From a virus, in UHGV virus genome UHGV-0090440: 64,000 nucleotides of DNA; one strand, written 5' to 3'. The notes under the pieces were generated by a model. It did no database searches and had not been told where the DNA came from. It was given only the letters and a program-made list of their open reading frames with translations. Both the position numbers and the translations under genes were made by a program. This document shows, piece after piece, positions 9,445-59,740 of this stretch. Positions within the stretch are counted from its first letter, which is position 1. Each line of letters begins with the position of its first letter.

Positions 9445-10068
9445 ATGAAGGATGGTGTAGTGAAGTTAAGGGCTTTAGGGGCCGCGCTCGCGGCTATGTT
9501 GGGATGCGTATCTGCTAATACTGCCAATGCAACTGCGTTACCTGCACAATTCAGGGCAGGGCAGCAGGTTATGAATAACGCTGGTGGAGATCATTCACAA
9601 GCGGCCATTATGGACTTTTGCAAGAGGGAGGGCATTCCATTACGGCCTGTTGGAACTCAGTTTATTGGTAAAACTGACTTTTGCGTTTTTGCATATACAG
9701 CATATCTGACGGACAAAGCTATAACAAAAACAGGTTATTCAACCAAAGATACTCTTTCCAGATTAAGTCAGGGATGGCAGCAATTCGAAGTGTATCGCCA
9801 GCAAGGATTAGGTGAGTTATTGCAACCTCTTTTTATGCTTGCGTTGGTGCCAGAGGGGCAGCAATTTTTGGTTAAAAAGGGAATGCTTCGCCAAAGTGAT
9901 ATTGCCGGGTTCGATAGCATGATGGCTTATGAGCGCAAACTAACCGAGCAGCGAAATAAAAAACCATCTGCTTCATGTGTGCAAAGTAAAACAGCAGAAT
10001 ACAGTGCAGTAGCCGGGCCTTTAGCCAAACAAATGGCAGAGCAATGGTGTAAAAAATACGGGCAATAA
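9445..10068 (+). CDS. secreted protein of unknown function
   Basis: N-terminal signal-peptide-like segment (LRALGAALAAMLGCVSANTANA); preceded by an AT-rich intergenic region. Confidence 0.45.
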   Translation: MKDGVVKLRALGAALAAMLGCVSANTANATALPAQFRAGQQVMNNAGGDHSQAAIMDFCKREGIPLRPVGTQFIGKTDFCVFAYTAYLTDKAITKTGYSTKDTLSRLSQGWQQFEVYRQQGLGELLQPLFMLALVPEGQQFLVKKGMLRQSDIAGFDSMMAYERKLTEQRNKKPSASCVQSKTAEYSAVAGPLAKQMAEQWCKKYGQ

Positions 10069-10088
10069 GTTACGCAGCGGAGGCAGAA

Positions 10089-10481
10089 TTGAAAAGATTG
10101 GCTATTGCTTTACTGGCGTCTTTCCCTTTGATCGCGAGCGCCGGAAATTTACAAGTTAAGTGCGGTCGGTTTGATATAAAAATCTATCCAGATGCCATAT
10201 TTCTGAATGGGAATAAGGTTGATAACGCACACCGAAAAACTGAATCTGACGTAATGAGCTATGTGTTCCAGGAGTATGCGGAGATGGGGGGAACTTACAC
10301 GCTGTACTCGCTGGATGTTCCTTCTCGCGGTGATATGACATTATCCCATCAATGGCAGAACGCCGATGGCGAAGCTCTGCGCGAGGTTAAAACAGAAAAA
10401 TGTGGCACTTTCCATTCTTTTAAAGGGAAAGCGCCAAATGTTAAATCTGTGCTTGAAAAACAGCGCGCAGGTGAGCTTTAA
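10089..10481 (+). CDS. secreted protein of unknown function
   Basis: Signal-peptide-like N-terminus MKRLAIALLASFPLIASA; RBS GGAGG 8 nt upstream. Confidence 0.45.
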   Translation: MKRLAIALLASFPLIASAGNLQVKCGRFDIKIYPDAIFLNGNKVDNAHRKTESDVMSYVFQEYAEMGGTYTLYSLDVPSRGDMTLSHQWQNADGEALREVKTEKCGTFHSFKGKAPNVKSVLEKQRAGEL

Positions 10482-11367
10482 ACACCTTTAACCACGGAGA
10501 TGCCGTTCCCTGCACGATAGCGGCGGGGAACGGAATTCTCCATCAGGTCACGAATTACTCCCGCCTCATGTAGTTCCACTGTTTCCCAGTATCTGTTTGT
10601 CGCCAATTACGCCCCGTTCCGCCAGGGGAAGGTATGAACGAGCTTCTGCTTCGGTTGCAGCCATGACGCAGATATACAGGTGTTTTTGGCAGGAATAGAA
10701 ACGCCAGATAAATTCAGAATGAGTTGGGGTGGGGATAGTAGCGATATTGGCAGCCTCCTTTGACTAAGTTAAGGAGCTACCGCGTGAGGTTCCAATCCCG
10801 GCACCCGTTTTTCTAAGGTGCCGTAGAAATATACCCCACGATAAGGCCAGGGCGCAAAAGTCAGTATTTTATGCTTTGGCGGATTTCTTCCGGGCTTGCT
10901 TGCAGGCGTAGGCCATTGCTTTAGCTTTCACTTCATCCAGCTTCCCGGTGATCACTTCTTTTCCGAGAGTGACAAACCAGTCATAGCAACCGCCAGTGAT
11001 GTTCTGGATTTGAAAGTTGAGGTAGCGAACGGTCATTTTGACACCCCCAGCGCGAGTAAAGAATGCAGATTATCGCGTGAGTGGCGGACAACGAGTGACG
11101 GGAAAAGACAGTAGCTGTTCATAGTGTAGTGACTCCTTGCTTTCGGAGCCGCCATCGACTGTTCCACGGTCTGGTGGCGGCGCAATAAAGGCTGGAACAC
11201 CGTGAGTCAACGGGGGCTTTTCAGCCACCTATATTGCACCGCCATAGGTATGGCGGCGGCAATAATACGAAAAACTATACAGTTTGTCTCAAAAAGTTGA
11301 CCGGTGTGCCAATCGGTAGTGAATGTACATCGGAGAAATTTATAATTCAACTTAAAATGTTAGAAAA

Positions 11368-11987: not shown

Positions 11988-12020
11988 ATGTTAGAAAATC
12001 AAAATTGATTTTCTAACACA
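11988..12020. promoter_or_regulatory. perfect inverted pair of operator-like motifs
   Basis: TGTTAGAAAATC-aaaatt-GATTTTCTAACA: 12-bp perfect inverted repeats, in the divergent region between the ref-like gene and the plus-strand gene block. Confidence 0.5.
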
Positions 12021-13831: not shown

Positions 13832-14154
13832 TGCCCACATCGCATTCTGCAATTACCCAGGAAAAAGCCTTCCACATACTCGAACGATTAGAGACGCTCG
13901 CTACGGAGGAGGATATATCCCCGGAGATGCTGGTTGAGTGCAGCCGTGTGATATTGCGTCGCAAGAACGACATCGCGCGGCTGACATCTGGCGCACCATC
14001 CGTATCAGCCAGTCCAACGCTTTATTGCAGCTTCTGCAACAAATCCCAGCACACCGTTAAAAAGTTAATTGCCGGGGACAACGCTTTCATATGCAACGAG
14101 TGCGTGAAAGATTGCAACAACATTATCCAGGAAGATCAAAGGGAATCAGCATGA
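13828..14154 (+). CDS. standalone ClpX N-terminal zinc-binding-domain homologue
   Basis: C-terminal 40 aa ([39 protein letters not shown]) align almost residue-for-residue with the E. coli ClpX N-domain ([40 protein letters not shown]), including all four Zn-ligand cysteines; no AAA+ module follows. Confidence 0.6.
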
Positions 14155-14834
14155 AATTTTCCAAATTTTCTGAGTTGGTGAATCGTATTTTGTCCAACAA
14201 CCACAGCCATCGTCGCGATATGGATGTAACGATCGTTGTTCATTCGCCTGGCAGCATTGGTTCAACACCTTCAGTTGAGGTTCAGTCAATTCACGCTGGT
14301 TTTGATTGGGATTCCGGGAAAGTGCTGATTTTCCCAGCACAGGCACTGACCACGCTAACACCAGAACAGATTACTGATATTACTGATAGTGTGCGCAAAG
14401 GTCAGTCCTGGCACGCATATCAGGAATATAAAAAGCATAAAGAGCAGTTGGAAAAATTGTCGATTGAACTGGATGCTGCAAAACAGCGCGTAGCAGAACT
14501 GGAGGCCAGTCGCGTGACGCTGGCGGAGGAGAACTCGTGGCTGAAGATGCTCATAGAAGATCATGCTGGTTGTACTGCTGTCTGCCCAAATTGCTCTCAT
14601 GAAGAACCCAGTGAAACAGACGACATTGTTTGGTCTTACCGTTCACGGGAAACGCCAGCCACCGATGCTTTCCTGGCTGAAGTACGTGCGCAGGGCGTGG
14701 ATATGGCTCGTAACGCGATGATTGATTTTGTCGATGGTGAAGTTGGGCCAAACAAGAACGTTCCGGGGCTGATTAGAGGCGCAGAGATATGCGTAAGTAT
14801 TGCTGAACAGCTTCGCAAAGGAGGCAGCCAGTGA
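14151..14834 (+). CDS. Ea22/Ead-like coiled-coil protein (paralogue 2)
   Basis: Start ATG overlaps the upstream stop (ATGA). Shares [17 protein letters not shown] and the C-terminal [11 protein letters not shown] with the 17717 paralogue. Confidence 0.4.
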
Positions 14835-18415: not shown

Positions 18416-19122
18416 GCAAGATTGATTATCAAAAGCTTCGTGAAATCGCTGAAAAAACAAAAATTGCTGGTGAAGCACCTGTAATGCCTTTCGATCAGCG
18501 AATTAATGCGCTTAACGATTTTATGAAGCACTTTTCGCCAGATATCGCGCTGGCATTGTTGGATGAATGGGAAAGAAACCAGCAATACATAAAACGCCGC
18601 GATCAGGAGAACGAGGATATTGCGCTAACGGTAGGGAAGCTGCGCGTTGAGCTGGAAGGCAAAGACAGCAAAATAGCCAATCTTACCGCCGAACGCGATG
18701 CTCTTCGTGAAGGTGAGATGGGCGACGCTAGGCATAGCAACACACGGGCCGCAGCTGATATCTACTTCCAACTGGTCGAGGAGTGCGAAATTCCTGCTGG
18801 CGGTTCTCTGGTCGAGTACGTTGACGATATGCGCGAGAAGCTGGAAGCCGCAGAGAAGCGCATTGCAGAACTGGAAAGCAACGAAGTCCGTGAAGTCGGA
18901 AATCAGTTTCTTGTTGTTCGCCATCCTGGGAAAACTCCTGTCATCAAGCACTGCACTGGTGACCTGGAAGAGTTTCTGCGGAAGTTAATCGAACAAGACC
19001 CGTTAGTAACTATCGACATCATTACGCATCGCTATTACGGGATTGGCGGTCAATGGGTTCAGGATGCAGTTGAGTATCTGCATATGATGTCTGACGCTGG
19101 CATTCGCATCAAAGGAGAGTGA
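18412..19122 (+). CDS. Ea22/Ead-like coiled-coil protein (paralogue 4)
   Basis: N-terminus SKIDYQKLREIAEKT and coiled coil LEAAEKRIAELESNE parallel the other paralogues. Confidence 0.4.
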   Translation: MSKIDYQKLREIAEKTKIAGEAPVMPFDQRINALNDFMKHFSPDIALALLDEWERNQQYIKRRDQENEDIALTVGKLRVELEGKDSKIANLTAERDALREGEMGDARHSNTRAAADIYFQLVEECEIPAGGSLVEYVDDMREKLEAAEKRIAELESNEVREVGNQFLVVRHPGKTPVIKHCTGDLEEFLRKLIEQDPLVTIDIITHRYYGIGGQWVQDAVEYLHMMSDAGIRIKGE

Positions 19123-19123
19123 T

Positions 19124-19954
19124 ATGAGCGCTATAACCAAAGATCGACTACTGACAATCAAGCAGTGGCGCGAAACATACGGACCTGGTAGCAACGTTGT
19201 ACTGCCAGCAGAAGAAGCGGAAGAACTGGCGCGGATTGCGCTGACATCGCTGGAAGCAGAGCCTATTGGTGAAGTTTCAGAGAAGCAACATGGCCTTGTT
19301 ATGGATGGGACGGTAGACCTTGGCGGGAAATCAACTTATCGCATCATTAAGGGAGAAAAAGCGATGAAGTTGTTGCCGTTGGGGACGAAGTTTTATACCG
19401 CACCGCCAGCGCCGATAACGCCGGAGGCCATTGAAAACGCAATTGAATACATCCGCAGTATCGCTTTTCACATCGATGAAGACGATTACCACGGCAAACA
19501 TATTGCGTATTTCATGCGACAAGCATTGGCCTGGCTGGAAGGGCATTCATGCAGCGACGACAGACAGGGTAAAGCCGAGAATCAACCAGTACGCGGCAAC
19601 CATGCTGCCGAATCCAATCGCGGTAATGAGTGGACCGGCAATCCTGATATTGATAACGCAATCATCATGCTCGACCGCATAGATACGCTGGAAAATTGCG
19701 ATGATGACCGTATTGAGGCTGTTAAGGCCGTTTTGCGTAGACTGGCTGGCAACCATCCGGATTTTCCGGATAGCTCCCAACAATCGCCCAAGGAAAGCGT
19801 AAAAACCACTCTGGAAAGAGGCTATCTTGAGGCCGCATTAAAGATTAAGCCGGGCCATACGCTAGGCGTCATTGATGCCATGTTGGTTCATGAAATGGCG
19901 AAGGCTTTATTGCCGCTGGTGGCTGATAAAATTCCGAATAAGGCCGATATCTGA
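19124..19954 (+). CDS. hypothetical protein
   Basis: 276-aa ORF, last gene of the plus-strand block, followed by a terminator. Confidence 0.35.
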   Translation: MSAITKDRLLTIKQWRETYGPGSNVVLPAEEAEELARIALTSLEAEPIGEVSEKQHGLVMDGTVDLGGKSTYRIIKGEKAMKLLPLGTKFYTAPPAPITPEAIENAIEYIRSIAFHIDEDDYHGKHIAYFMRQALAWLEGHSCSDDRQGKAENQPVRGNHAAESNRGNEWTGNPDIDNAIIMLDRIDTLENCDDDRIEAVKAVLRRLAGNHPDFPDSSQQSPKESVKTTLERGYLEAALKIKPGHTLGVIDAMLVHEMAKALLPLVADKIPNKADI

Positions 19955-22992: not shown

Positions 22993-23655
22993 TCACTCCA
23001 CTACAAACCAGTCACATGCCAGTAAGTCGCCTACAGAAGGAACCCACGGAACAACTACACCTTGTGCATTTTTTAAGGCGAAATAAGCACCATACGGAAC
23101 GAGATCGCCGGGGAAATATCCCTTAATGGCTTCCATTCGTGCCGGGTACTGTCCTTCAGGAACCAGCCAGCAGAATTGGTTTTCGCCGTTCCACCCGCGC
23201 CGGGCAACTTTCTTGCCATCCTTCAGCCACATCAGCGCGTCAGAAAAGTCGGCTGCTTCAAGGTCGATTTCTTCTTGTAGAGTAGCGATACCGCCAGCAG
23301 AAATAGTTACGTCCCTGGCTGTAATGAATGTCACCCCATTGTGACCTTCAATGCTGAGCGATACCCCATTTTCGGAGGCGACGTTAACCCGGCTATAGCA
23401 TTTTTCAAATGCTTTCTCTGGCACATAGACCAGATAGCCATTTTCAGCAGTGACGAGATATCCTCCTATTTGCGGTCGGAATTTTTCCAAGAACGCACCA
23501 TCAACACGAAGCGTCATTCCTTTTGGCTCAACGACTTCGATACTGCCAAAAATGGGCGCATAAGCTTTGCCGACAATAACAATATCTTTGATTTTCGATG
23601 CCCGAATGATGCTGTGGCATTTGTATTTGGGGAACACCTGAAAAGTGCTGACCAT
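22993..23655 (-). CDS. hypothetical protein (DUF2829-like C-terminal motif)
   Basis: C-terminal W..KDGKKV.RRGW...VP....GDLLACDW resembles the DUF2829 signature as I recall it. Confidence 0.35.
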   Translation of the reverse strand: MVSTFQVFPKYKCHSIIRASKIKDIVIVGKAYAPIFGSIEVVEPKGMTLRVDGAFLEKFRPQIGGYLVTAENGYLVYVPEKAFEKCYSRVNVASENGVSLSIEGHNGVTFITARDVTISAGGIATLQEEIDLEAADFSDALMWLKDGKKVARRGWNGENQFCWLVPEGQYPARMEAIKGYFPGDLVPYGAYFALKNAQGVVVPWVPSVGDLLACDWFVVE

Positions 23656-25034: not shown

Positions 25035-25046
25035 TGTGTTAGAAAT
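25035..25046. promoter_or_regulatory. operator-like motif TGTGTTAGAAAT
   Basis: Single copy between the dre stop and the start of the 24990 gene. Confidence 0.4.
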
Positions 25047-25051
25047 TTAAT

Positions 25052-26080
25052 TTACGAATCCATCAAGCGGCTATTAGCCCCCACAGACACACCGCCACGG
25101 CGCAGATACCGCATAAGTGTTTCCGGTTTCTTCCAGGTTCCTTCCTGCATGATCTCCACCATAGACACCTGCTTTTCAGCCATATCAATAGCGGCCCCGA
25201 CGCGTGCACTATGCCCGGTCCACGTCCGGTATCTTCCTTTGTTTGGCGTAGCATCCCTTTTATTCAGCAACCCCCAGGCGTCGCTGAATATTTTCTCCAT
25301 TGCAGGTGCAGTAAGGGGCGTTGTCGTAATCCTGGCCTTATTGCTACGGTGTATCGGCGGGAACAGCACCGCGTCAGGATGTTCACGAAGCCCGGAAACA
25401 TCCAGCCAGTCATTCAGCACAGCAGTAGTGCGACGGGAAAGCACCTTATCAAGCCCGGCGGCGGTCGTTATTGTCTTCGTGTGTGAAATATGTAGCGTGA
25501 CAGTGTCACCTATTTGGTCCAGATCTCCTACACGAATACGCGAGATTTCCGACATACGCATCAGCGTATTGTATGCAACAAAGAGAAAAGCCCGGTTGCG
25601 CTGGTCCACCAGCCGTTCTGACCTGGACAGCAGGACGTCGAGCAGTTTCAGGTCGTCCCACCGCAACGGTATAGCCTGGCCTGTTCGCTCGCCTTTTCCC
25701 GTTGCCGCTTCGCGCCGGATGCGCCGCATGGCCAGAGACACACTTTTATCGTCCGACAGCGGCGGGAGGCCACATTGCGAAAGCAGCATGTTAAGCATGG
25801 CATAGTGCTTATCAATGGTGGTCGAAGCCAGATCGGCATCATGCAACTGAAGAAAATACTCGCGGGCCATTTCTGGTGAGATCGGAAACCAGGCAAGCTG
25901 GCGAGCGTGACACCAGCGCGCCCAGGAATGAAACACCAACCGGAGGTCGCGCAGAGTATTCGGCGCATAAGCCCCCTGGTCATTCATGAACCGCATAAAG
26001 TTTTCTGCGGCTTCCTGGTACTCTTTGCCAATGTTGCGCAGAAAACCACCGGAACTGCCAGAGATAATCAACTCACTCAT
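25052..26080 (-). CDS. dre: Cre-family tyrosine recombinase (Dre-like)
   Basis: 342 aa, collinear with P1 Cre (WFP, NML, MRRIR, AYNTL.R..EI.RIRV.D, WSGHSARVGAA.DMA...EIMQ.G.W), with the catalytic R..H..R..Y arrangement, but only about one third identical to Cre. The sequence matches Dre of phage D6 as I recall it. Confidence 0.85.
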   Translation of the reverse strand: MSELIISGSSGGFLRNIGKEYQEAAENFMRFMNDQGAYAPNTLRDLRLVFHSWARWCHARQLAWFPISPEMAREYFLQLHDADLASTTIDKHYAMLNMLLSQCGLPPLSDDKSVSLAMRRIRREAATGKGERTGQAIPLRWDDLKLLDVLLSRSERLVDQRNRAFLFVAYNTLMRMSEISRIRVGDLDQIGDTVTLHISHTKTITTAAGLDKVLSRRTTAVLNDWLDVSGLREHPDAVLFPPIHRSNKARITTTPLTAPAMEKIFSDAWGLLNKRDATPNKGRYRTWTGHSARVGAAIDMAEKQVSMVEIMQEGTWKKPETLMRYLRRGGVSVGANSRLMDS

Positions 26081-26232
26081 GGAACTATTTCACCTCTATA
26101 TACAGATGACGCTACGCGAAAAATATAAAAATGACAGGGTAGCTATAAGTTAATTTTCAAAATACAAGCCTTTGATTCGAAGCACGTATTTTCAGTGATG
26201 TCAATACTGTTCATCTACACATGATTATAGTC

Positions 26233-26264
26233 TAACTTTAAATAATGCCAATTATTTAAAGTTA
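26233..26264. promoter_or_regulatory. rox-like recombination site (lox analogue)
   Basis: TAACTTTAAATAAT-GCCA-ATTATTTAAAGTTA: perfect 14-bp inverted repeats around a 4-bp spacer, about 150 bp upstream of dre. The arm shares TAACTT with loxP (ATAACTTCGTATA) and the site matches the published rox sequence as I recall it. Confidence 0.8.
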
Positions 26265-26364
26265 TAAAATGCCGATTTTTTTGTAATCCATCATAGATTG
26301 ATGATGGACAGTAACACGTTGCCTTCATGGTCTTTAATTTGCGAAGTGTGGTTTCAACGGTTGG

Positions 26365-26374
26365 TTTTCTAACG
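26365..26374. promoter_or_regulatory. operator-like motif TTTTCTAACG
   Basis: Copy in the dre / 26474 divergent intergenic region. Confidence 0.3.
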
Positions 26375-26447
26375 TTGATGACAAAAAAATCATAGTCCGA
26401 TCCTTTACTCGCTCTGTTATTCGACATAAATTTGTCATAGTAATTTT

Positions 26448-26460
26448 ATGTTAGAAAACT
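26448..26460. promoter_or_regulatory. operator-like motif ATGTTAGAAAACT
   Basis: 14 nt upstream of the 26474 start codon. Confidence 0.4.
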
Positions 26461-26473
26461 AAATCGCGTAGGA

Positions 26474-27514
26474 ATGATGAGTATGAAGTCGATCGAGAAA
26501 GAGTACAAACGGTTCCTGCAAACCGCAGAACGGTGGAAAGAGCTGGTGGTCGCAAACTCTGTTTTCCATGATACCAGTTATGCTGGTGAGGAATTCCGCC
26601 ATGTTGCATTAACGCATGACCAAAACATATTAGAAGAAGCTGAAAAATGTCTTGCTGAATGGAAAGCCTTCGTTGACATGTGCCGCGATGCCGACGGCAA
26701 AGCGTCGAACATTGTTGAGTCCGTATATTCTCCGATCCCATTCATCATTGAGGACACCAATCAAAGCACGCATGTCGTTGTGCAAAGCGCTACAACAACA
26801 CGTGCATTTACACGTGAACAATTGCTAAAAAAATACGACAAAATCATAAAGAAAAGCCTGAAAAATAGGGTTTTTTCTCAAATCGTAGGTGCTCTTGAAG
26901 AAGAACAGCGCTTCTTTGAAGCTGAGCCTGAAGGCGAGATCTACCGGGCGCGTAAAGAGGCATATACAGATGTTGTGCTGACAACAAACATCGAAGGCAG
27001 TAATGCCCTTTCTCGCTTTAGAGTTGGCGCACATGGCGCATTGGTTTTCGCAAGACTACCGAAGACAACGATCCCCGTTGTCAATAATGTTGGTGAACGC
27101 CGGAGCATTACAATTTATTCTGGCGTCGAATCGGTACCTTGCAGCCTTCTCGGCGATTTTAACTTATATCGTGTTCGTGACCTGGAAAAACACCAGCCAA
27201 GCTACGTTGCGAAGTCGTATATCTTAAGGAACATCGATATTCGCAATGAAAGCCTTAAGCAGAAATCCGCTAAGATGCTGGAGGATGCCGATCCGGCTAT
27301 TCGCCATATCATTGAGCGTAAGATACGTACATCACGTGAAGCAATGGCAAGGCTGGATAAAATGGATCTGGAATTGTTAGACGTAATGATGGCCTCTGGA
27401 GACGACCTGACCGGCATTAAACTGAATGAAGCTCGTAAAAAATACGGCAAAGCAATCGAAGAACGTTACGGATACACATTCCCCCAAACGCAGTACGCCG
27501 CGAAGCTCTGGTAA
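26474..27514 (+). CDS. hypothetical protein divergent from dre (possible regulator; function unknown)
   Basis: 346-aa ORF with an operator-like motif directly upstream; no recognisable similarity to P1 C1. Confidence 0.4.
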   Translation: MMSMKSIEKEYKRFLQTAERWKELVVANSVFHDTSYAGEEFRHVALTHDQNILEEAEKCLAEWKAFVDMCRDADGKASNIVESVYSPIPFIIEDTNQSTHVVVQSATTTRAFTREQLLKKYDKIIKKSLKNRVFSQIVGALEEEQRFFEAEPEGEIYRARKEAYTDVVLTTNIEGSNALSRFRVGAHGALVFARLPKTTIPVVNNVGERRSITIYSGVESVPCSLLGDFNLYRVRDLEKHQPSYVAKSYILRNIDIRNESLKQKSAKMLEDADPAIRHIIERKIRTSREAMARLDKMDLELLDVMMASGDDLTGIKLNEARKKYGKAIEERYGYTFPQTQYAAKLW

Positions 27515-27523
27515 TCACAACCG

Positions 27524-27549
27524 GCCCCGCATCGCGGGGCTTTATATAT
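27524..27549 (+). terminator. rho-independent terminator
   Basis: ccccgc-atc-gcgggg hairpin followed by TTTATATAT; overlaps the pacB stop on the other strand. Confidence 0.45.
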
Positions 27550-29050
27550 CCAGATCCGGCATTTCGATATCCGCCAGAACCTGATCTCGGAAAGTTGCCA
27601 TTTCGGCACCAATATCTTCATTAGCAGGCACATAGTCCACCAGCATAGTGAAGCAGTAGGTATCCCATCGGTCAGGCGATTTGATGTTTAGCTTTTGCCG
27701 CATGTGCTCTTTGCGCATCATCGCCATTTTCCCTTCTTCATTCATTAAAAAGGGGATTTTTGACGCTTGCTCTGCCGTTTTAGGGTCACTGTCTATCCGC
27801 ATACGCCCTGACTTTATGGCATCACGCGCCATGATATTTGCGTAGGCACGCTGATTAACAAATCGCTCCCTGTCTTTGTTCGCAAACATGGGTTTTCCCC
27901 ACCGAATACGTACCGGGTTCGCACCACGACGCACCAACTGCGCACACGTATCAGAACCAAAACCATCAGCATCAACCGCGATTGTTATATTCGGGTATTT
28001 TTCCGGCGTACATTCGTTATATATGAAGTCAGCAAAGGCCAATGGGTCCATAGTGCCAGGCATCTCCATTACCTTAAAGTTAACAACGCGCCGCTTATCC
28101 CTGTGACCTGATACCTTGCAGATGTTGAGGACCGACTTATCTCGCCCATTACCAACGTCAGCCGTTGCCACCCATCCCCAGTTTTTCTCCAACAACACCT
28201 TGCGGCGAGCAGAGCGATCGCATTCATCACGACCAAGCAAATAGCCGTTAATTTCTCGTGGGAACTGACCAAGCACCTTGACCATGTACTCAATAGAATC
28301 GCGCCCGCCATATTCCAGAAGCTTCTCCTTGATGAATTGTGGTGTGACGAACGGTGATTCTTCCGAGTTAAGAACAATTGCTGTCCAGATCCCTTTCGGG
28401 TTGTCTGGGGTTTTTGCTCGAGAATGGTGCGAATCGTAGAAATAACCACTTGGCCTTGTTGGCTGGGATAGCATCAACATCCGGTTATCTTCTTCAGTAA
28501 GAGCACCGGTCATTACGCCGATCGCCTTATCAGATATACCAGATGCTTCATCCAGAATTAGAAGCAAATGTGCCGCGTGTTCCCCCGCCAGCGCTTCTTC
28601 GTTGCCGAGTCGATAACCTTTGCAGAGAACTTCCCAAATCCCCTTACGGGAGCGCTCATAAAACATGGTGTCAGAGAGGACAAAATAGGTCTGCAACCAC
28701 CCATGACGCTTAACTGCATTCGCCCAATACTGTTTAACGTATTTGAATACGCCTGTTTTTACCTGGCCTATCTTGTTAGCAACAATGATGACACGGGCAT
28801 CGGGGAACAGGATCATAAAAATCAACAGCAACATCGCGGTAAGGGACGACTTCCCCGTTCCGTGTCCGGACGTGACGGTAGTCCTACTCCCCGTTTCCTG
28901 TACGGACTGAATGATCTGCTGCTGCTGCGGGGAGGGGAACATCCCAAAAATATCGACAACAGCCTGGGTAAAGTTGTAGCGGTATTTGATTACCATATCG
29001 CGCCAGCGTGGATCTCTGGTGACGCATTTAACCTTGCGCCCGCCAGCCAT
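27542..29050 (-). CDS. pacB: terminase large subunit (PacB-like)
   Basis: 502 aa; Walker A-like TSGHGTGKSS and Walker B-like LLLILDEASG in the N-terminal ATPase half; sits directly downstream of a PacA-like gene with start/stop overlap. Confidence 0.7.
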   Translation of the reverse strand: MAGGRKVKCVTRDPRWRDMVIKYRYNFTQAVVDIFGMFPSPQQQQIIQSVQETGSRTTVTSGHGTGKSSLTAMLLLIFMILFPDARVIIVANKIGQVKTGVFKYVKQYWANAVKRHGWLQTYFVLSDTMFYERSRKGIWEVLCKGYRLGNEEALAGEHAAHLLLILDEASGISDKAIGVMTGALTEEDNRMLMLSQPTRPSGYFYDSHHSRAKTPDNPKGIWTAIVLNSEESPFVTPQFIKEKLLEYGGRDSIEYMVKVLGQFPREINGYLLGRDECDRSARRKVLLEKNWGWVATADVGNGRDKSVLNICKVSGHRDKRRVVNFKVMEMPGTMDPLAFADFIYNECTPEKYPNITIAVDADGFGSDTCAQLVRRGANPVRIRWGKPMFANKDRERFVNQRAYANIMARDAIKSGRMRIDSDPKTAEQASKIPFLMNEEGKMAMMRKEHMRQKLNIKSPDRWDTYCFTMLVDYVPANEDIGAEMATFRDQVLADIEMPDLDI

Positions 29051-30414
29051 TAATCATCCTCCGGCGGTTCTATCGCGATATCATCATCTCCGGCGTCATA
29101 CCCTGCATCAGATGCATCATAATCACCGTAAATTTCAGCCGTTGCCGAAGGGTCAATATCCAGCTCTTCGTCGTTGGCCTCGAATTCTCCAGCTTTACGC
29201 TCGCCATTGCGGTCATAATCTCCGCACCCCAATTCTTCAACAATGGTTGCCACATCCGCCCGGCGCTCTGCCAGCCATTGCGGATGGTTAGCCTGAAGCG
29301 TTGCAAACTCCCTTGCCTCTTTGTCCAGCTGTTCATCATCAACATCATTGACGTCAGAAACAGGTGGTTCGAGAAGAGTGATAGCTTTCGCCGCGCGCGC
29401 CGCGAGGATAGCCGGGACGCTGACCCCCTGGCGCTCGATGTATTCAGCAACACCGATATCATCCAGTTCCTCGCGCTCACGCATACGTATAGCGGCGGCG
29501 ATAACTCTGGCTGCGCGTGCGTCAGCGCCAATGCGATATTCAATCTCTTTGCCACGCTGTTCGGCCTGTAGGCGTGCTAATTCGAGTTTTTCTCTGGCCT
29601 CAGCCTCTTTGAATGCTTGCTGGCGAGCGCTCTGACGAAGCTTTTCATCCCCCTGTCGCAGCTTTTGTTCGGACTGATATATAGCTGCCAACCTACTGAT
29701 AAAATCATTCATGTAGTAGGCCGCGTCACTGATTAGACCGAGAAGGCGCTGCCCAGGGTGCATTCCTTCTGGCTCTTTATCGCCCAAGGTGTCTATTTCC
29801 GCCTGTAGACGTTCGGCCTCCTGATCAACAATGCTTTGATACTGAAGTGCGCGCTCTTGCGCCATTTGAATTGCTAACCGCAGGTGTTCTTCTGCGCCGT
29901 TCTTCATCATATCGCGAGCAACATTCGTAGTTGGCAATGTGGCACGCTGCACAGCACCGTCAGGGATCATTGCAGAAGATCCCTCAATTTTTGGGGCGCT
30001 TTTATCTTCTTCGGGGATCATTTTCGCCATTTTTTCGCGCAATGATCTCCTGACGGATTCTTTTATCTCATTGTTATTATTTGAATTATTTTCATGATCC
30101 GAAGTTTTCTTTCTCGGCATACTTCGGAAAGAACCTGCGCCCTGCGAATTGTCAATTTCTGTAAATTTTGTTTTTTCTGCACCCTCTTCCTGCTTTTTTG
30201 TTGCTCTTCCTGCCCGTTTTTTTTCAGGTGATTTGGTGCTTTTTTTTGTTGTCTTTACCTGCGACCGCACCTCATTTTTTTTCATATTGAGATGCTTTCT
30301 GGCTGTATTGAAGCTAAGGCCATGCTCCTCACAGTATTCCTTTACAGTGATCCCTTTTTCTTCACGCAACGCTATAAAGCGGGCGCGGTGCTCCTCCCAA
30401 TTAACCAGACTCAT
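29050..30414 (-). CDS. pacA: terminase small / pac-recognition subunit (PacA-like)
   Basis: N-terminal HTH-like region (ITVKEYCEEHGLSFNTARKHL), then a long charged region; positioned upstream of pacB as in P1. Confidence 0.55.
   Translation of the reverse strand: MSLVNWEEHRARFIALREEKGITVKEYCEEHGLSFNTARKHLNMKKNEVRSQVKTTKKSTKSPEKKRAGRATKKQEEGAEKTKFTEIDNSQGAGSFRSMPRKKTSDHENNSNNNNEIKESVRRSLREKMAKMIPEEDKSAPKIEGSSAMIPDGAVQRATLPTTNVARDMMKNGAEEHLRLAIQMAQERALQYQSIVDQEAERLQAEIDTLGDKEPEGMHPGQRLLGLISDAAYYMNDFISRLAAIYQSEQKLRQGDEKLRQSARQQAFKEAEAREKLELARLQAEQRGKEIEYRIGADARAARVIAAAIRMREREELDDIGVAEYIERQGVSVPAILAARAAKAITLLEPPVSDVNDVDDEQLDKEAREFATLQANHPQWLAERRADVATIVEELGCGDYDRNGERKAGEFEANDEELDIDPSATAEIYGDYDASDAGYDAGDDDIAIEPPEDD
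29964..30099. other. candidate pac site (GATC-hexamer cluster inside pacA)
   Basis: Five GATC sites within 136 bp (29964, 29978, 30016, 30044, 30096) embedded in TGATC/GGATC hexamers inside pacA. Confidence 0.3.
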
Positions 30415-32322: not shown

Positions 32323-32398
32323 CAACCAAATATGGTGGCCCCTACCGGACTTGAACCGGTGACCGTGCGATTATGAGTCGCCAGCTCTAACCACTGAG
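32323..32398 (-). tRNA. trnI: tRNA-Ile (anticodon CAT, lysidine type) - could alternatively be Met
   Basis: 76-nt cloverleaf ending CCA; anticodon loop CTCATAA; close to E. coli ileX (GGCCCCTTAGCTCAGTGGTTAGAGCAGGCGACTCATAATCGC...) from memory. Confidence 0.7.
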
Positions 32399-32562
32399 CT
32401 AAAGGGCCAGATTACTGTTAATTCCGCTTACGCTTTTTGCCAGGACCGCGTAAGGCTTTTGCTGCTTGCTCGACCCCATATACAACCACCAGCAGAAATA
32501 AAAATGTCCACCAAGGGTTCTTATCGGCAAACGTCCAAAATTCCATCATGTTCTCTATTTGG

Positions 32563-33390
32563 TTATTTCACCGGAACAAACGGAACAGCGGTATTACTGG
32601 TCATATACTGCGGTAGCGTTCCGTTCCATTTGTTGATCGCTTCCAACTCCATAACGCCGGGGTTCTGGCGCAGAGCCTCACCGCGTAAACGAATGGCATC
32701 AGCTTCAGCCTGGGCTTTTGTGCGAATGGCATCGGCCTGTCCGGCAGCTTCTGCGCGCAGCATGTTGGCTTCTGCTTCGCGTTGCTTGACTTCCTGCTCG
32801 CGTTGCAGAGTTTTCTGGTTCGCCGTGACTTTGGCATTAATGCTGTCGATAACGGTTGGCGGGTACTCCGGCTTGCCCACATATGAGAGGCTCATTACCT
32901 GAATACCGATGGGCGTCATTTCTTCCTGGATGTCTTTAAGAGCTGCATCCAGTAGTTCAGACTTGCCACCGTCGATAAATTTGTCGGTGGTCATTTTGCT
33001 GGCCAGTCGGTTAAGTGCGTCGGCAATCTTCTGGCGCAGATCGGTGTCGGTAATGTCATCCACGCCTTTGCGGTAGGTCTGAAATACAGTTGTGACTTTT
33101 GCCGGATCAACCTTGTAAGCTACACCAATGTGGTAACCAATTGTTGTCCCGTCGCTCATTTGGAAGCTGAACGGATCATCATAGGTCTTCATTTGCTTAA
33201 AGGTCGGGAAGATATAAACTTCTGTGTTCCAGCCTGTCCAGTAGCGACCAACGCCAACTACTTCGCCGACACCTTTATCATCCCCCAGCTTATTTACTTT
33301 GATCCCTACATTGCCTGGTTCTACCCGGTCGCATCCGGTCAGACATAAAGAACCAAAAATAATCGCTGCACTAATCAACGTTTTTTTCAT
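32563..33390 (-). CDS. plp: SPFH/band-7 domain lipoprotein (Plp-like)
   Basis: Signal peptide with lipobox LTGC; SPFH-like core; coiled-coil C-terminal region (QREQEVKQREAEANMLRAEAAGQADA). Confidence 0.6.
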   Translation of the reverse strand: MKKTLISAAIIFGSLCLTGCDRVEPGNVGIKVNKLGDDKGVGEVVGVGRYWTGWNTEVYIFPTFKQMKTYDDPFSFQMSDGTTIGYHIGVAYKVDPAKVTTVFQTYRKGVDDITDTDLRQKIADALNRLASKMTTDKFIDGGKSELLDAALKDIQEEMTPIGIQVMSLSYVGKPEYPPTVIDSINAKVTANQKTLQREQEVKQREAEANMLRAEAAGQADAIRTKAQAEADAIRLRGEALRQNPGVMELEAINKWNGTLPQYMTSNTAVPFVPVK

Positions 33391-33607
33391 TAATCAATTT
33401 CCTGGTTTTTTCACGAAAAAAGACTACTGCAAAAGCCGGGTAAATGAGCGCGAGAAGGACTCCCAACAATACAAGTATTGTGCTGTCAGATGAGATCATA
33501 TTTGGCAAAAGCCAAACATACAGAACCAGTGACACAATCAAACAGAGGACGGCATAAATATATAGCCGCACCCATAGCGTTCGACATTTGTTCGGATTGT
33601 TCTGCAT
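33371..33607 (-). CDS. upl: small membrane protein upstream of plp (Upl-like)
   Basis: 78 aa with two hydrophobic helices; overlaps the plp start. Confidence 0.45.
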   Translation of the reverse strand: MQNNPNKCRTLWVRLYIYAVLCLIVSLVLYVWLLPNMISSDSTILVLLGVLLALIYPAFAVVFFREKTRKLINEKNVD

Positions 33608-33754
33608 CCTCTCACTCCATTATTCAACGAATAAAAAAGCTGCGGTGCCTGGTGCCTCCAGGTGACGTTAACCAGTTAACAATTAACGCCGGGATGTTTG
33701 ATTTAACCACTACGGAGGATTGTTTTAACTGTTCCGCGTGCGCTTAGCCGCATT

Positions 33755-33869
33755 CACCGCAATGGTAAGAGCACTTGGCTGGCTGGGCGGCGATGACGCC
33801 TGTACGCATTTGGTGATCCGGTTCTGCTTCCGGCATTCGCTTAATTAGCCAAATACTCTTAACGTTGCG
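33755..33869. repeat. long imperfect hairpin element U1
   Basis: Arms ccgcaatggtaagagcacttgg / ccaaatactcttaacgttgcg; abuts the 3' end of the tRNA-Ser-like gene. Confidence 0.4.
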
Positions 33870-33956
33870 CTGGCGGAGAGTAATGGAATCGAACCATCAT
33901 CGCTTGCGCAATGGGACGGTTTTCAAGACCGCTTGAGCACCATGCTCCCTACTCTC
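33870..33956 (-). tRNA. tRNA-Ser-like (anticodon TGA), class II, atypical D-arm
   Basis: Acceptor GGAGAGT/ACTCTCC with discriminator G and CCA; anticodon arm GCGGT-CTTGAAA-ACCGT nearly identical to E. coli tRNA-Ser(UGA); long variable arm; T-loop TTCGATT. The D-arm is short and irregular, so it may be a tRNA-like RNA or pseudogene. Confidence 0.4.
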
Positions 33957-34081
33957 CAATTGTTGTGGTTACCGGTACTGATCTCCGGCTTAGCGACCCC
34001 GGCTACTGACTGCATTGCAGTGTGTGAACTCGCCTCGTGTGTCGCTGGGGCATTTCTTTCCGCGCATCAGTCTGCGCATCA

Positions 34082-34158
34082 ACCACAACGGAAAGAGCAT
34101 TGGCTAACCAGGCTCGCCGACTCTTCACGATTATCGGCCCAATGCTCTTACCTGTTGT
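34082..34158. repeat. long imperfect hairpin element U2
   Basis: Arms ccacaacggaaagagcattgg / ccaatgctcttacctgttgtg (about 20 bp stem) around a 34-nt loop. Confidence 0.4.
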
Positions 34159-34340
34159 GCGCTCCGTTTCGTGGAGCTAACGGCGGGTGATCGGGCCGCA
34201 CCAGACTGGACTTATTTCAGCGTTATGCTCATGCCAGAGAATCAAACTGTGATGGTCGGTGCTGAACTCCGACACAGGGTTGTAGCAAGCCCCGCAAAGC
34301 GCGCACTACTGTAGTTGCGGCACATCAGCCTGTGCATTCA

Positions 34341-34435
34341 CCACAATGTTGAGAACACTGGTTGTCACGCTGCCTCGCGACCTTTATTCATAGATTGGGA
34401 TATGACCCCGTTACGCCAATGTTCTCAACGTTGTA
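34341..34435. repeat. long imperfect hairpin element U3
   Basis: Arms ccacaatgttgagaacactgg / ccaatgttctcaacgttgtag; stem differs from U2/U4 by compensatory changes. Confidence 0.4.
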
Positions 34436-34574
34436 GTGCCGGTTACGGTTCCGGCCAGGCTTCTTCCTCAACGGGGTGTTCTCCATACGGACTACCGTTT
34501 ATTGGTCGTTCCTGCGGTTTATGTTGTGAAGCCAGATGCTTATCTTCTGGTTGCTTCAAAGAGCTGCACTTCAT

Positions 34575-34661
34575 CACAACGGTAAGGGTACTTCGTAGGG
34601 ATTCGAACCCTCTGCCAAGCTCGGCGATCTCCGACGTCGCAAAATACCCTTACCTGTTGTG
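34575..34661 (-). ncRNA. hairpin element U4: long stem enclosing a tRNA-like T-arm (candidate small stable RNA)
   Basis: Arms cacaacggtaagggta / tacccttacctgttgtg; the loop on the minus strand contains AGGG-TTCGAAT-CCCT, a canonical T-arm. Lies directly 3' of tRNA-Thr on the same strand. Confidence 0.35.
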
Positions 34662-34662
34662 T

Positions 34663-34738
34663 TGGTGCCGGTTAACGGACTCGAACCGCTGACATCCTGC
34701 TTACAAGGCAGGCGCTCTACCAACTGAGCTAAACCGGC
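34663..34738 (-). tRNA. trnT: tRNA-Thr (anticodon TGT)
   Basis: 76-nt cloverleaf: acceptor GCCGGTT/AACCGGC, D-arm GCTC-AGTTGGTA-GAGC, anticodon loop CTTGTAA, T-loop TTCGAGT, 3' CCA. Confidence 0.75.
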
Positions 34739-34742
34739 AATT

Positions 34743-34829
34743 TGGTGGGGAGTGATGGAGTCGAACCACCCGAGTCGCAATGACAGTAGATTTACAGTCT
34801 ACCCCGCTGCCCCTACGGACTAACTCCCC
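34743..34829 (-). tRNA. tRNA-Tyr (anticodon GTA), class II
   Basis: Acceptor GGGGAGT/ACTCCCC, anticodon arm GTAGA-CTGTAAA-TCTAC (identical loop to E. coli tRNA-Tyr), long variable arm, T-loop TTCGACT, CCA end. Confidence 0.55.
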
Positions 34830-34834
34830 TAAAT

Positions 34835-34909
34835 TGGCGATGGTGGGTGGATTCGAACCACCGACCAGTTGGTTAACAGCCAACTGCTCTACCGCTGAGC
34901 TACACCATC
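34835..34909 (-). tRNA. trnA: tRNA-Asn (anticodon GTT)
   Basis: 75-nt cloverleaf: acceptor GATGGTG/CACCATC, D-arm GCTC-AGCGGTA-GAGC, anticodon arm GTTGG-CTGTTAA-CCAAC, T-arm GGTGG-TTCGAAT-CCACC, CCA. Confidence 0.75.
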
Positions 34910-46811: not shown

Positions 46812-47467
46812 AAAAAGCCCCGACCAGGCCGGGGCATCACGCTTCAAGTCACGATCCAATCATTACCGACTATATCAGCCGTCGATAAATCAACTTCCCG
46901 GATCTGGAGTCCATCAGTGTGCCTCCGCAATGCTGGGATTGGTAATATTGCGATACCAGGGATTAGTGTTTGGTTGTGGGGAAGTAGAGAAACGACCAGT
47001 AAGAACACCATACTGATCAGGGATCAGAGAACGGGCTTCTTTTTCGGTTGCGGCAATTGCGAAGTGATCGCAGTGTTTTTGCAGGGAGTGGAAACGCCAG
47101 ATGAATTCTGGACGTGAGCAAGGATTGGCATTAACCATAGTTACGGCCTCACTAACAGGTTTAACAACCTGCTACCCGCTGTCAAACAGGTGGCAGGACG
47201 TGACAGGGTTGACAGACTGGCGTTAGTGAAACCAGCAGGCCGAAGCCTCCCCATCACGCCCCACCATAATTCGGGCGTAACGCGATTTACGGACACAAAA
47301 ATACCGCAATATCGGAAATCTGCGGTTGTCCGCACTAACATTCAGGCTGTCAAACCTGGTCGCAGAATTTGCTACGACGGCATTAATATAAGCCTGAAAA
47401 CATGGAAGATCAACTAAAAATTTCAGCAATGGATGACTTCAGTCGATGATGCAGATCATACATTCCG

Positions 47468-47551: not shown

Positions 47552-48514
47552 TCATCCCCTAAATCCCGCAGGGATTGACCAATCCTCCCGGTCAAATTCA
47601 GACCGATAGCCACGCTGTTTCATCAGGTCAAAGGCTTCACCAATGGTTGCACACCCCTGGGAGCCAGAATAATCCATTGAGAAATCCAGGACACTGGATT
47701 GTTTAGGCTTATTCACTGCGGTAGCGGCACTACGTATCCATGCAAATTTTTTTGCCAGCTTTTCAGCGGTACGATACAGAGCCTGCCGTTTTGCGTGCCC
47801 CTCGTCTGAACGACGCTTTGCAGCTCTCGCTTTTGCCGCCGCCAGGCAGCGGTTGGTATGTTCTTCCCTGATTACTGGTTTTTTATCCAGCGCCCCATTA
47901 TCCGCTTGAGAACTATCTGCTGGTGAAGCCTTTGGCTGAACCGCGCATGATCTTTCTCTTCTTTTTGCTATAGAGTGACTCTTATTTTCTATTGGCTGTT
48001 CATTTTGAACATGGGGGGACTTGTTCAAAATGAACAGGGGGTTCCCAGTTTCAAAAAAATAACGAACCTTTGAAATCAACTGCTTAACCAGTTTTGTGGC
48101 GTTGGCAAATTTGATGCCCTGCTTACCCCCTATCTCCATTGCTGCATGAATGAAGTGGAGAAATTGTGTCGTAAACCGATATACGTTACACACCTGGGCA
48201 TTGTTATTCGCTACCTGATGTTGCCTAACAAGCATTCCGCACTTCGTCGCTTCAGCAAATGCCCGGCGTACAGTAGAAATACTGCGTCCTGTAATCTCGG
48301 ACATATCAGCATATGAGCGACGGATCATGTATTCATCGGTAGCCCCTGCCAGGTTGGCGAACTCGGCAATAATAGCGCTATGTGAAGGGGAAAGAAGACC
48401 GCTATGACGAGCAAAAAAACTCAACTGATGACCTTTGATTTTTTTGTGGTATTCAGTGTTGTTTTTATACTCAGAAGTGTTGAAAGTTACTGAAACTGAA
48501 TTTAAAATATTCAT
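47552..48514 (-). CDS. hypothetical HTH-containing protein (possible replication or regulatory protein)
   Basis: HTH-like segment MSEITGRSISTVRRAFAEATKCGML; basic C-terminal half. Confidence 0.35.
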   Translation of the reverse strand: MNILNSVSVTFNTSEYKNNTEYHKKIKGHQLSFFARHSGLLSPSHSAIIAEFANLAGATDEYMIRRSYADMSEITGRSISTVRRAFAEATKCGMLVRQHQVANNNAQVCNVYRFTTQFLHFIHAAMEIGGKQGIKFANATKLVKQLISKVRYFFETGNPLFILNKSPHVQNEQPIENKSHSIAKRRERSCAVQPKASPADSSQADNGALDKKPVIREEHTNRCLAAAKARAAKRRSDEGHAKRQALYRTAEKLAKKFAWIRSAATAVNKPKQSSVLDFSMDYSGSQGCATIGEAFDLMKQRGYRSEFDREDWSIPAGFRG

Positions 48515-57304: not shown

Positions 57305-59740
57305 CTCGGTACCAGCGGTGAAAAGATCCCCCTGTTGAGCACGGCTAACACATGGAGTGCGCGCCAGACTTTCAACGGCGGGATCACCGGGGCGCTGACA
57401 GGGAACGCCGACACCGCGACGAAACTTGCGACGGCAAGAAACATCAACGGTGTTAAATTTGATGGTTCTGTGGACATTTCGATACCAACAATTACGTCCA
57501 GAGGGCGTGTTACTGCGCTCACCGGTACAACACAAGGTGCTGCTACTGGATTGCAAATGTATGAGGCGTACAACAACGGCTATCCTTCTGCTTACGGGAA
57601 TGTGCTTCATCTTAAGGGCGCAACGGCAGTTGGTGAAGGTGAGTTGTTCATAGGTTGGAGCGGTACAAGTGGCGCTCATGCACCTGTACATGTACGTTCG
57701 CGACGAGATACTGATACAGCCAGTTGGTCAGAGTGGGCGCAGGTCTACACATCGAAGGATTCCATCCCTGGTGTAAATACCACGGGCAACCAGAACACAA
57801 CCGGAAACGCGGCGTCTGCAACGAAATTACAAACGGCAAGAACTATTGGTGGTGTTTCATTTAATGGCACCGCAAACATCGACCTGCCGGGCGTGAATAA
57901 AACAGGCAATCAGAGCACTACCGGCAATGCAGCTACAGCCACAAAACTGCAAACAGCACGCACCATTAATGGGGTTTCATTTGACGGAACGGCTAATATT
58001 TCTCTGTCACCGGCAAATATTGGTTGCCCGGCATCTCCTACTGGTTGGCTTGAAACAGGTGATAATGGAGCATCAATAACAACAGAGCAATTAGTGACTC
58101 TGCTACGAGATAATGGTGCTTTTAATGCAAAGGTATGGATAGCGCGTTGTGCCTGGGCGTATGCAAATAGTGCATCCATACCAGACAGCGAAACAGGATG
58201 CGGCATTATTCCACTGGCTGGCGCAGTTATAGAGGTATTTAATAATAGCAGTAGCACGAGTTATTTTACCATTCGTATAACAACGGCAACGACGACAAGT
58301 GTATCTGGCGCACTCACTAATGCTGAATTTATCTATGTGTCTAATGGCACAAGTTATTCACCAGGATGGCGCAGAGCGTATAACACTAAAAACAAACCTA
58401 CTGCGGCTGATGTCGGAGCTTTACCACTATCTGGAGGAGCGTTAACTGGCGGATTAACTGCTGCTGGCGAGATTATTTCCAAATCGGCGAATGGTCTGCG
58501 CATTGCCTATGGCAACTATGGATTCTTTATCCGTAATGACGGCGGCAGCACATATTTCATGCTAACAGCATCAGGAGATACGTTAGGTTCATGGAACAGT
58601 TTGCGACCGATTACAATTAATAATACCAGCGGTGTTGTGTCTATTGGTAATGGACTAAATGTTACTGGTGGCGTTAATGGTAGTTTGAACGGTAATGCAG
58701 CGACAGCGACCAAGTTACAAACCGCTAGAACTATAAATGGGGTGTCGTTTGATGGTTCTAAAAATATTGAGCTAACGGCGGAAGATTTAAATCTTGAGCA
58801 AACTGTAGAATTAGCCGCAGGAGCATTGCAGAAAAACCAGAACGGCGCAGATATTCCGGGAAAAGATACCTTCACTAAAAATATTGGTGCATGTCGCGCT
58901 TTTCACAGTTCTATTAGTACAGGTGCAGGGAACTGGACAACGGCACAATTGATTGAATGGCTGGATTCTCAAGGGGCATTCAATCACCCATACTGGATGT
59001 GCAAATGTTCATGGTCATACGGCAGTAATAAAATTATTACTGACACCGGATGTGGACTTATTCACCTTGCGGGTTGCGTTATTGAAGTTATGGGCTATAA
59101 AGGCGCCATGACCATTCGTATAACCACACCGAGTACCTCTAACGGTGGTGGCACTACGAATGCGCAATTTATATATATTAACCACGGTTCAGAGTATTTA
59201 CCTGGCTGGCGACGTGACTACAACACGAAAAACCAGCAGCCTGCATTTGCTTTAGGGCAGACAGGAAGCATAGTTGGAAATGACAAAGCTGTTGGATGGA
59301 ACTCGATTAGCGGGGTTTATAACGCTAATATTGGTGGATCATCTACGTTGATTCTCCATTTTTATATGGGAGCTGGTAGTTGTCCGGCTGTTCAGTTCCG
59401 CGTGAATTATAAGAACGGCGGTATTTATTATCGTTCTGCGCGTGACGGTTATGGTTTTGAAGCCGACTGGTCGGAATTTTATACTACAACACGTAAACCA
59501 TCTGCGGGAGATGTTGGGGCATATACCAAAGCAGAATGTGATTCACGATTTATTACAGGTATTCGATTAGGTACAAAATCGTCTGTGCAAACATGGAATG
59601 GTCCTGGATGGAACGATAAATCTGGTTATGTTGTTACTGCCTCAATTAACTCAAATAAGGACGAACTTATTGATACAACTCAGGCAAGGCCGCTGCAGTA
59701 TTGTATCAATGGTACATGGTATAACGCGGGAAGTATTTAA
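57290..59740 (+). CDS. alternative tail-fibre variable part (Sv'), currently promoterless and silent
   Basis: Reading frame opens at cixL; the first about 45 aa ([46 protein letters not shown]) are identical to an internal stretch of the minus-strand S gene; repeated [23 protein letters not shown] units follow. Confidence 0.7.

Follow-up and report, generated by a model that had tools for sequence, protein, structure and literature searches.

Dre/rox serves alongside Cre/loxP as a standard genome-engineering tool. The pair was reportedly described from phage D6 by Sauer and McDermott in 2004 (as cited in PMC3553980), and its characterisation dates from that year. In published assays Dre recombines rox efficiently in E. 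coli (PMC4957104, PMC3553980, PMC4777119), and the system works in mammalian cells too. Wild-type rox consists of 14-bp inverted repeats around an asymmetric 4-bp spacer (PMC4777119), and Dre needs no more than these 32 bp as its substrate when they are placed in heterologous plasmids (PMC4777119, PMC4957104). Dre of D6 acts on rox and not on loxP, and Cre does not act on rox (PMC4957104, PMC3553980); nor does Dre cross-react on vox (PMC3553980) or nox (PMC4957104). Replacement of three Cre residues by those of Dre (K43R, R259P and G263K) turned Cre towards rox (Karimova et al., PMC4957104). A described relative is the Panto/pox pair of Pantoea sp. aB, in which the recombinase is 52% identical to Dre and the site is one base per arm off rox; pox is recombined by Dre, but not by Cre, Vika, VCre or Nigri (PMC4957104).

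We analysed a 64-kb stretch of virus genome UHGV-0090440 (here called the window). A recombinase gene and a short inverted repeat upstream of it almost certainly constitute the Dre/rox site-specific recombination module of a D6-like plasmid prophage (Table 1). The initial annotation had described the recombinase as collinear with Cre yet strongly diverged from it and had attributed the pair to Dre/rox of phage D6. Comparison with both proteins bore this out. In BLASTP the predicted protein was identical to D6 Dre (AAV84949, the dre product of AY753669) at 337 of 342 positions (98.5%) without a gap, D6 Dre being of the same length, whereas identity to P1 Cre was 41% over some 320 aligned residues. 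In a search of solved structures all 17 matches were Cre or Cre-derived variants, the engineered Tre included; the best of them (E=1.5e-67) joined Cre residues 21-340 to residues 22-341 of the window protein in one collinear alignment. Pfam assigned the protein to Phage_integrase, with a weaker, sub-threshold match to the N-terminal SAM-like domain.

The residues on which catalysis and specificity depend are those expected of Dre. R175, E178, K202, H290, R293, W316 and Y325 make up the catalytic set, and each is identical to its aligned counterpart in Cre (R173, E176, K201, H289, R292, W315 and Y324). R44, P259 and K263 stand where Cre has K43, R259 and G263, the three positions at which Dre residues redirect Cre. 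The window protein differs from D6 Dre by Q102, G128, Q160, I190 and G270, and all five lie outside the catalytic and known specificity positions. Judged by its sequence, the open reading frame is a natural allele of D6 Dre. An identical protein has an NCBI entry already, for example EFZ0029328.1 ('MULTISPECIES: tyrosine-type recombinase/integrase [Enterobacteriaceae]'), and its 90%-identity cluster has 845 members.

Between dre and c1 lies a site that reads TAACTTTAAATAAT-GCCA-ATTATTTAAAGTTA on the + strand. It had been annotated as a perfect 14-4-14 palindrome about 150 bp upstream of the recombinase. The measured distance, from the near edge of the site to the dre start codon, is 152 nt, and the two 14-nt arms, 4 nt apart, are 100% complementary. 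The spacer GCCA is asymmetric, however, so that only the arms are palindromic and the site has a direction; on the dre strand the spacer is TGGC. Alignment with published rox, which the annotation had proposed as a check, gave identity at 32 of 32 positions, both with the D6 misc_recomb feature 'region of crossover (rox) site for Dre recombinase' (AY753669) and with wild-type rox, TAACTTTAAATAATGCCAATTATTTAAAGTTA (PMC4777119). The 32-mer occurs once in the window, the chance expectation from dinucleotide-preserving shuffles being 0 even with 3 mismatches allowed, and no second copy of a single 14-mer arm with fewer than 3 mismatches was found in the window. The site is 209 nt from c1; the layout is the same in AY753669, and the whole dre-c1 intergenic region is 97% identical to that of D6. 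The TAACTT core that the annotation had seen in common between these arms and loxP is present in the P1 record, where the lox sequence ...TATACGAAGTTAT contains AAGTTA. Neither loxP nor a loxP arm was found within 2-3 mismatches anywhere in the 64-kb window.

Table 1. Features of the dre-rox region and other sequence elements of the window (positions refer to the window).
Feature	Position	Strand	Remarks
dre	25052-26080	-	ORF for Cre-like tyrosine recombinase; 342 aa, ATG start, no interruption
dre leader	26081-26223	-	Ribosome-binding site AGAGGTGAAA, 8 nt before ATG
Putative sigma-70 promoter of dre	26224-26251	-	-35 TTGGCA, 26251-26246; -10 TATAAT, 26229-26224
rox	26233-26264	none	32-bp Dre target; arms 26233-26246 and 26251-26264, spacer GCCA 26247-26250
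Operator-like motif TGTTAGAAAAC	26449-26459		Just upstream of c1
c1	26474-27514	+	Prophage repressor gene; divergent from dre; collinear with c1 annotated in both D6 records
pacB	27542-29050	-	Terminase gene; context
pacA	29050-30414	-	Terminase gene; context
Tad2-like ORF	22993-23655	-	220 aa, three genes downstream of dre
tRNA genes (Met, Ser, Thr, Tyr, Asn)	32333-34909	-	Five genes
tRNA-Tyr	34743-34829		Extra relative to D6; between Thr and Asn
C4 antisense RNA and a1/b1 targets	47186-47271, 47339-47391	-	P1-type immI region
Inverted repeat CTGTTCATTTTGAACA / TGTTCAAAATGAACAG	47996-48037		Perfect, 16 nt, 10 nt apart
TGTTAGAAAAT motif	2595-2624, 11358, 11989-12018, 16369, 25037-25047, 26449-26459, 30882, 37370, 38412, 47487, 48688, 51510		At most 1 mismatch
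Stretches with no blastn counterpart in D6	9503-10625, 14136-14648, 18659-19406, 32551-33640, 57886-58464, 60891-61772		Last two in invertible tail-fibre region

The surroundings of the module are those of D6. The gene order pacA-pacB-c1-rox-dre-orf2-orf3-dut is the same in the window and in D6, and in local blastn 55.3 of the 64 kb aligned to the complete D6 genome in order. On D6 coordinates the window extends from 61.5 kb through the record end and then from position 1 to about 37 kb. The opening point of the D6 record, in the middle of rox, is therefore spanned by the window. The annotated plasmid replication and partition genes of D6, at 45-59 kb in D6, lie beyond the stretch that the window covers. 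Also in the window are a dUTPase gene, a Tad2-like ORF, a C4 antisense RNA with its targets, a tRNA cluster and counterparts of the D6 late genes, as well as an ORF for a Fic/Doc-family toxin within the stretch that aligns with D6 phd-doc.

Relatives of this region are found on plasmids. The 1.6 kb around dre and rox had matches in 144 PLSDB plasmids (from Escherichia, Salmonella and Shigella, with one from Enterobacter); the matches listed are 87-97 kb long, most are non-mobilizable and they come mainly from E. coli or Salmonella. Most of the 12-kb neighbourhood was also recovered from 92 complete E. coli genomes, with identity reaching 98.9%, and there it was nearly always plasmid-borne. The D6 record describes a circular plasmid prophage. 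The alignments thus place the window as a D6-like, P1-related plasmid prophage of E. coli, a relative of D6 and not D6 itself, and the confirmed rox anchors this placement with a site of canonical sequence. The annotated term 'P1-family phage-plasmid' is a fair description in that the element is P1-related, but the D6 record carries no P1 genus and gives its taxonomy as Caudoviricetes only.

Since the pair is identical to the experimentally characterised one (but for the five substitutions in Dre), the recombination that it would carry out is a matter of record. One Dre monomer would bind each 14-bp arm, and two rox sites with four Dre monomers would form a synapse, by analogy with Cre. Tyr325 would cleave the DNA, and the strands would be exchanged in two steps through a Holliday junction, inside or beside the asymmetric spacer; accessory factors should not be needed. 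We infer this chemistry (a tetramer, a Tyr nucleophile and two sequential exchanges) from Cre and from the conserved catalytic residues.

With its single copy of rox, a plasmid prophage of this kind could have its dimers resolved to monomers by Dre, which would make its inheritance stable. Dre could likewise circularise linear DNA after infection, provided that both terminally redundant ends contain rox. Both roles are proposed by analogy with P1 Cre/lox and from the conserved order pacA-pacB-c1-site-recombinase. Multimer resolution has likewise been assigned to the 'Cre/lox' module of D6-like Salmonella plasmids (PMC6799933). The module would be orthogonal to its P1 counterpart, since Dre acts on rox and not on loxP. 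No P1-style clustering of TGATCA/G hexamers was found in pacA, which contains one such hexamer, with a second nearby. The argument for cyclisation depends on the pac site and the direction of packaging, neither of which could be placed in this way, and the geometry of cyclisation is one that we infer.

Rox is overlapped by a putative promoter of dre that agrees with the sigma-70 consensus at 11 of 12 positions and has a 16-nt spacer. Its -35 hexamer is formed by the rox spacer and one base of each arm, and its -10 hexamer lies 3 nt outside the dre-side arm. One 11/12 site was observed in the 64 kb, against about 1.2 in shuffled sequence, so the count carries no weight and the support for the promoter comes from its position and conservation. 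The TATAAT is retained at every locus at which Dre is at least 70% identical, and the bases adjacent to it vary. On these features dre may be transcribed from the rox-overlapping promoter. A genuine promoter here would be blocked whenever Dre occupies rox.

The leader downstream shares the block TTTCGCGTAGCG ... AGAGGTGAAA with the leader of P1 cra in an alignment with P1, in which cra is a small gene between lox and cre; the D6 type is without cra. The P1 cre control region has Dam (GATC) sites, whereas none occurs between rox and dre in the window, and one or two occur there in some lineages. Two further candidates in this region were set aside. A LexA box (CTGT-N8-ACAT, 26207-26222), placed like the annotated LexA site by lox in P1, has a core mismatch and is not conserved in D6-like lineages. 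A 70-aa ORF that runs across rox (26215-26427, - strand) contains two 1-nt indels relative to D6, so its frame is not conserved and it is unlikely to be a gene.

Natural variation of rox was surveyed in a scan of viral contigs (IMG/VR) with the window Dre, which returned 36 loci (L079-L114) with recombinases 56-99% identical. The expectation that the palindrome should recur in related genomes was confirmed: wherever the contig covers the upstream sequence (35 of 35 loci), a rox or rox-like site is found with unchanged spacing from the start codon, between about 184 and 153 nt ahead of the recombinase gene. The site is canonical at 21 loci. At nine otherwise canonical loci an A is changed to G at position 9 of the c1-side arm only (in the sense of dre). 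The same change is found in L108, where it is combined with a TGGA spacer and an altered base in the other arm (three mismatches). In the sense of dre, the spacer is GGGG in L099 and TAGC in L111, whose Dre is 70% identical. In L113 and L114, whose Dre is 56% identical, both arms are altered alike, A to T (TAACTTTATATAA...), and the spacer is inverted relative to the gene. A scan of species-representative genomes gave no close Dre orthologues and only relatives at 41-47% identity; these 74 loci belong mostly to Pantoea, Mixta, Rahnella, Erwinia and related genera.

The two sides of rox appear not always to have travelled together. At nine loci (L082, L086-L088, L092, L096-L098 and L106) identity to the window is 93-97% on the dre side (26081-26232) and drops to 77-78% across the 300 nt on the c1 side (~26265-26565). 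Left-flank and right-flank types of rox combine differently among lineages, and the A-to-G arm variant is found mainly together with certain c1-side flanks. Such a distribution suggests a mosaic junction at rox, formed by crossing-over between co-resident D6-like plasmids. A more far-reaching reading, which we put forward tentatively and consider somewhat doubtful, is that the rox spacer serves as the -35 element of the main dre promoter and that Dre would thereby repress its own synthesis. A change of spacer would then affect compatibility and expression together; the GGGG, TAGC and A-to-G variants would mark partly heterospecific plasmid lineages, and the drop in identity at rox would record Dre-mediated exchange.

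Three other readings of the locus were weighed against a functional Dre/rox module. The overlap with a near-consensus promoter, and the location of the palindrome within the divergent dre-c1 control region, could be taken to mean that the palindrome is mainly regulatory (an operator or promoter of dre or c1, or a terminator) and not a recombination site. The identical 32 bp are experimentally sufficient as a Dre substrate (PMC4777119, PMC4957104), however, and regulation would add to a role in recombination and not displace it. The palindrome also has neither a G+C-rich stem nor a T-run and so is not a terminator. We regard a mainly regulatory palindrome as very improbable. Still fainter are the prospects of an integrase that acts on a chromosomal attachment site, with the palindrome as its attP. 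Dre does belong to the phage integrase family, and 107 of the 1722 matches to the 12-kb neighbourhood are chromosomal, although these may reflect other genes shared with integrated prophages. Against this, the site is short, symmetric, of lox type and identical to rox, with none of the arm-binding sites of a long attP; no sign was seen of integration host factor or of an excisionase-type partner; and the relatives are overwhelmingly plasmids of 88-96 kb, as D6, by its record, is a circular plasmid prophage.

The five substitutions relative to D6 Dre raise a different question, namely, whether the window allele is inactive or shifted in specificity. G128 is present in none of the 36 other alleles compared, and I190 recurs among them only in L111. 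On the other hand, the frame is intact, the catalytic and specificity residues are unchanged, the adjoining rox is canonical, and Q102, Q160 and G270 are found in other natural alleles that adjoin a canonical rox. The exact allele occurs on 26 independent contigs of up to 90 kb, which suggests that it is maintained. An impaired or redirected Dre is accordingly improbable in our view, and we retain the reading of a presumably active Dre paired with its canonical rox.

Several other elements of the window were noted in the same analysis. The motif TGTTAGAAAAT, with at most 1 mismatch, was observed 14 times against 1.9 expected, and two form palindromic pairs. One copy is the operator-like motif just upstream of c1; others lie just past the dre stop codon, upstream of the lpa-like and repL-like genes and beside the C4 RNA. 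P1 has C1 operators at these positions, and TGTTAGAAAAT probably represents the C1 operator that goes with D6-type immunity; it differs from the sequence that we take to be the P1 C1 operator. The C4 antisense RNA and its a1/b1 targets scored above the Rfam gathering thresholds. A perfect inverted repeat (Table 1) lies inside the stretch that aligns with D6 repL.

Differences from D6 were seen in the tRNA cluster and in the Tad2-like ORF. ARAGORN found four tRNA genes in D6, including a tRNA-Met that is without annotation in the D6 record; the extra tRNA-Tyr of the window stands between the Thr and Asn genes, which are nearly adjacent in D6. The Tad2-like ORF ends in a C-terminal Thoeris anti-defence domain (PF11195, E=1.5e-22), and its N-terminal part (~23316-23652) is without a D6 counterpart, the D6 ORF being shorter. 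In the invertible tail-fibre region the remaining D6 matches are 71-81% identical.

For Dre/rox in this window, the system, the phage family and even the exact protein allele are all known already. What the analysis may offer beyond this is a small catalogue of natural rox variants, each paired with its Dre allele, and the possible overlap of rox with the dre promoter. Both bear on the design of orthogonal rox sites, and both bear on the upkeep of monomers and the exchange of modules in common E. coli and Salmonella phage-plasmids.

Compared with the described systems, the locus is closest to Dre/rox of D6 (AY753669, MF356679), with the same 152-nt spacing between dre and rox, an identical rox and the 337/342 match in Dre. 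It is set apart from D6 by the five Dre substitutions, by nucleotide identity of about 97% locally and 77-98% elsewhere, and by about 8.7 kb of the window that are without a D6 counterpart. L113 and L114, with their TAACTTTATATAA arms, and the 74 loci at 41-47% identity look like members of the Panto/pox branch; the window pair, in contrast, is of the Dre/rox type proper.

P1 Cre/loxP resembles the module in the fold family and catalytic residues of the recombinase and in the position of the site between c1 and the recombinase gene. The arms of loxP and rox share TAACTT...ATAATG, and, as we read the start of the P1 record, the loxP spacer has the same orientation relative to cre as the rox spacer has relative to dre. 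The architecture differs, rox being a 32-bp site of 14-4-14 (PMC4777119) and P1 loxP a 34-bp site of 13-8-13. The annotated cre promoters of P1 lie beyond lox and are separated from cre by cra, whereas the putative dre promoter lies over rox. On the c1 side of lox P1 presumably has the gene coi. Neither cra nor coi has a counterpart in the window. In every feature that sequence can test, the pair is Dre/rox and not Cre/loxP.
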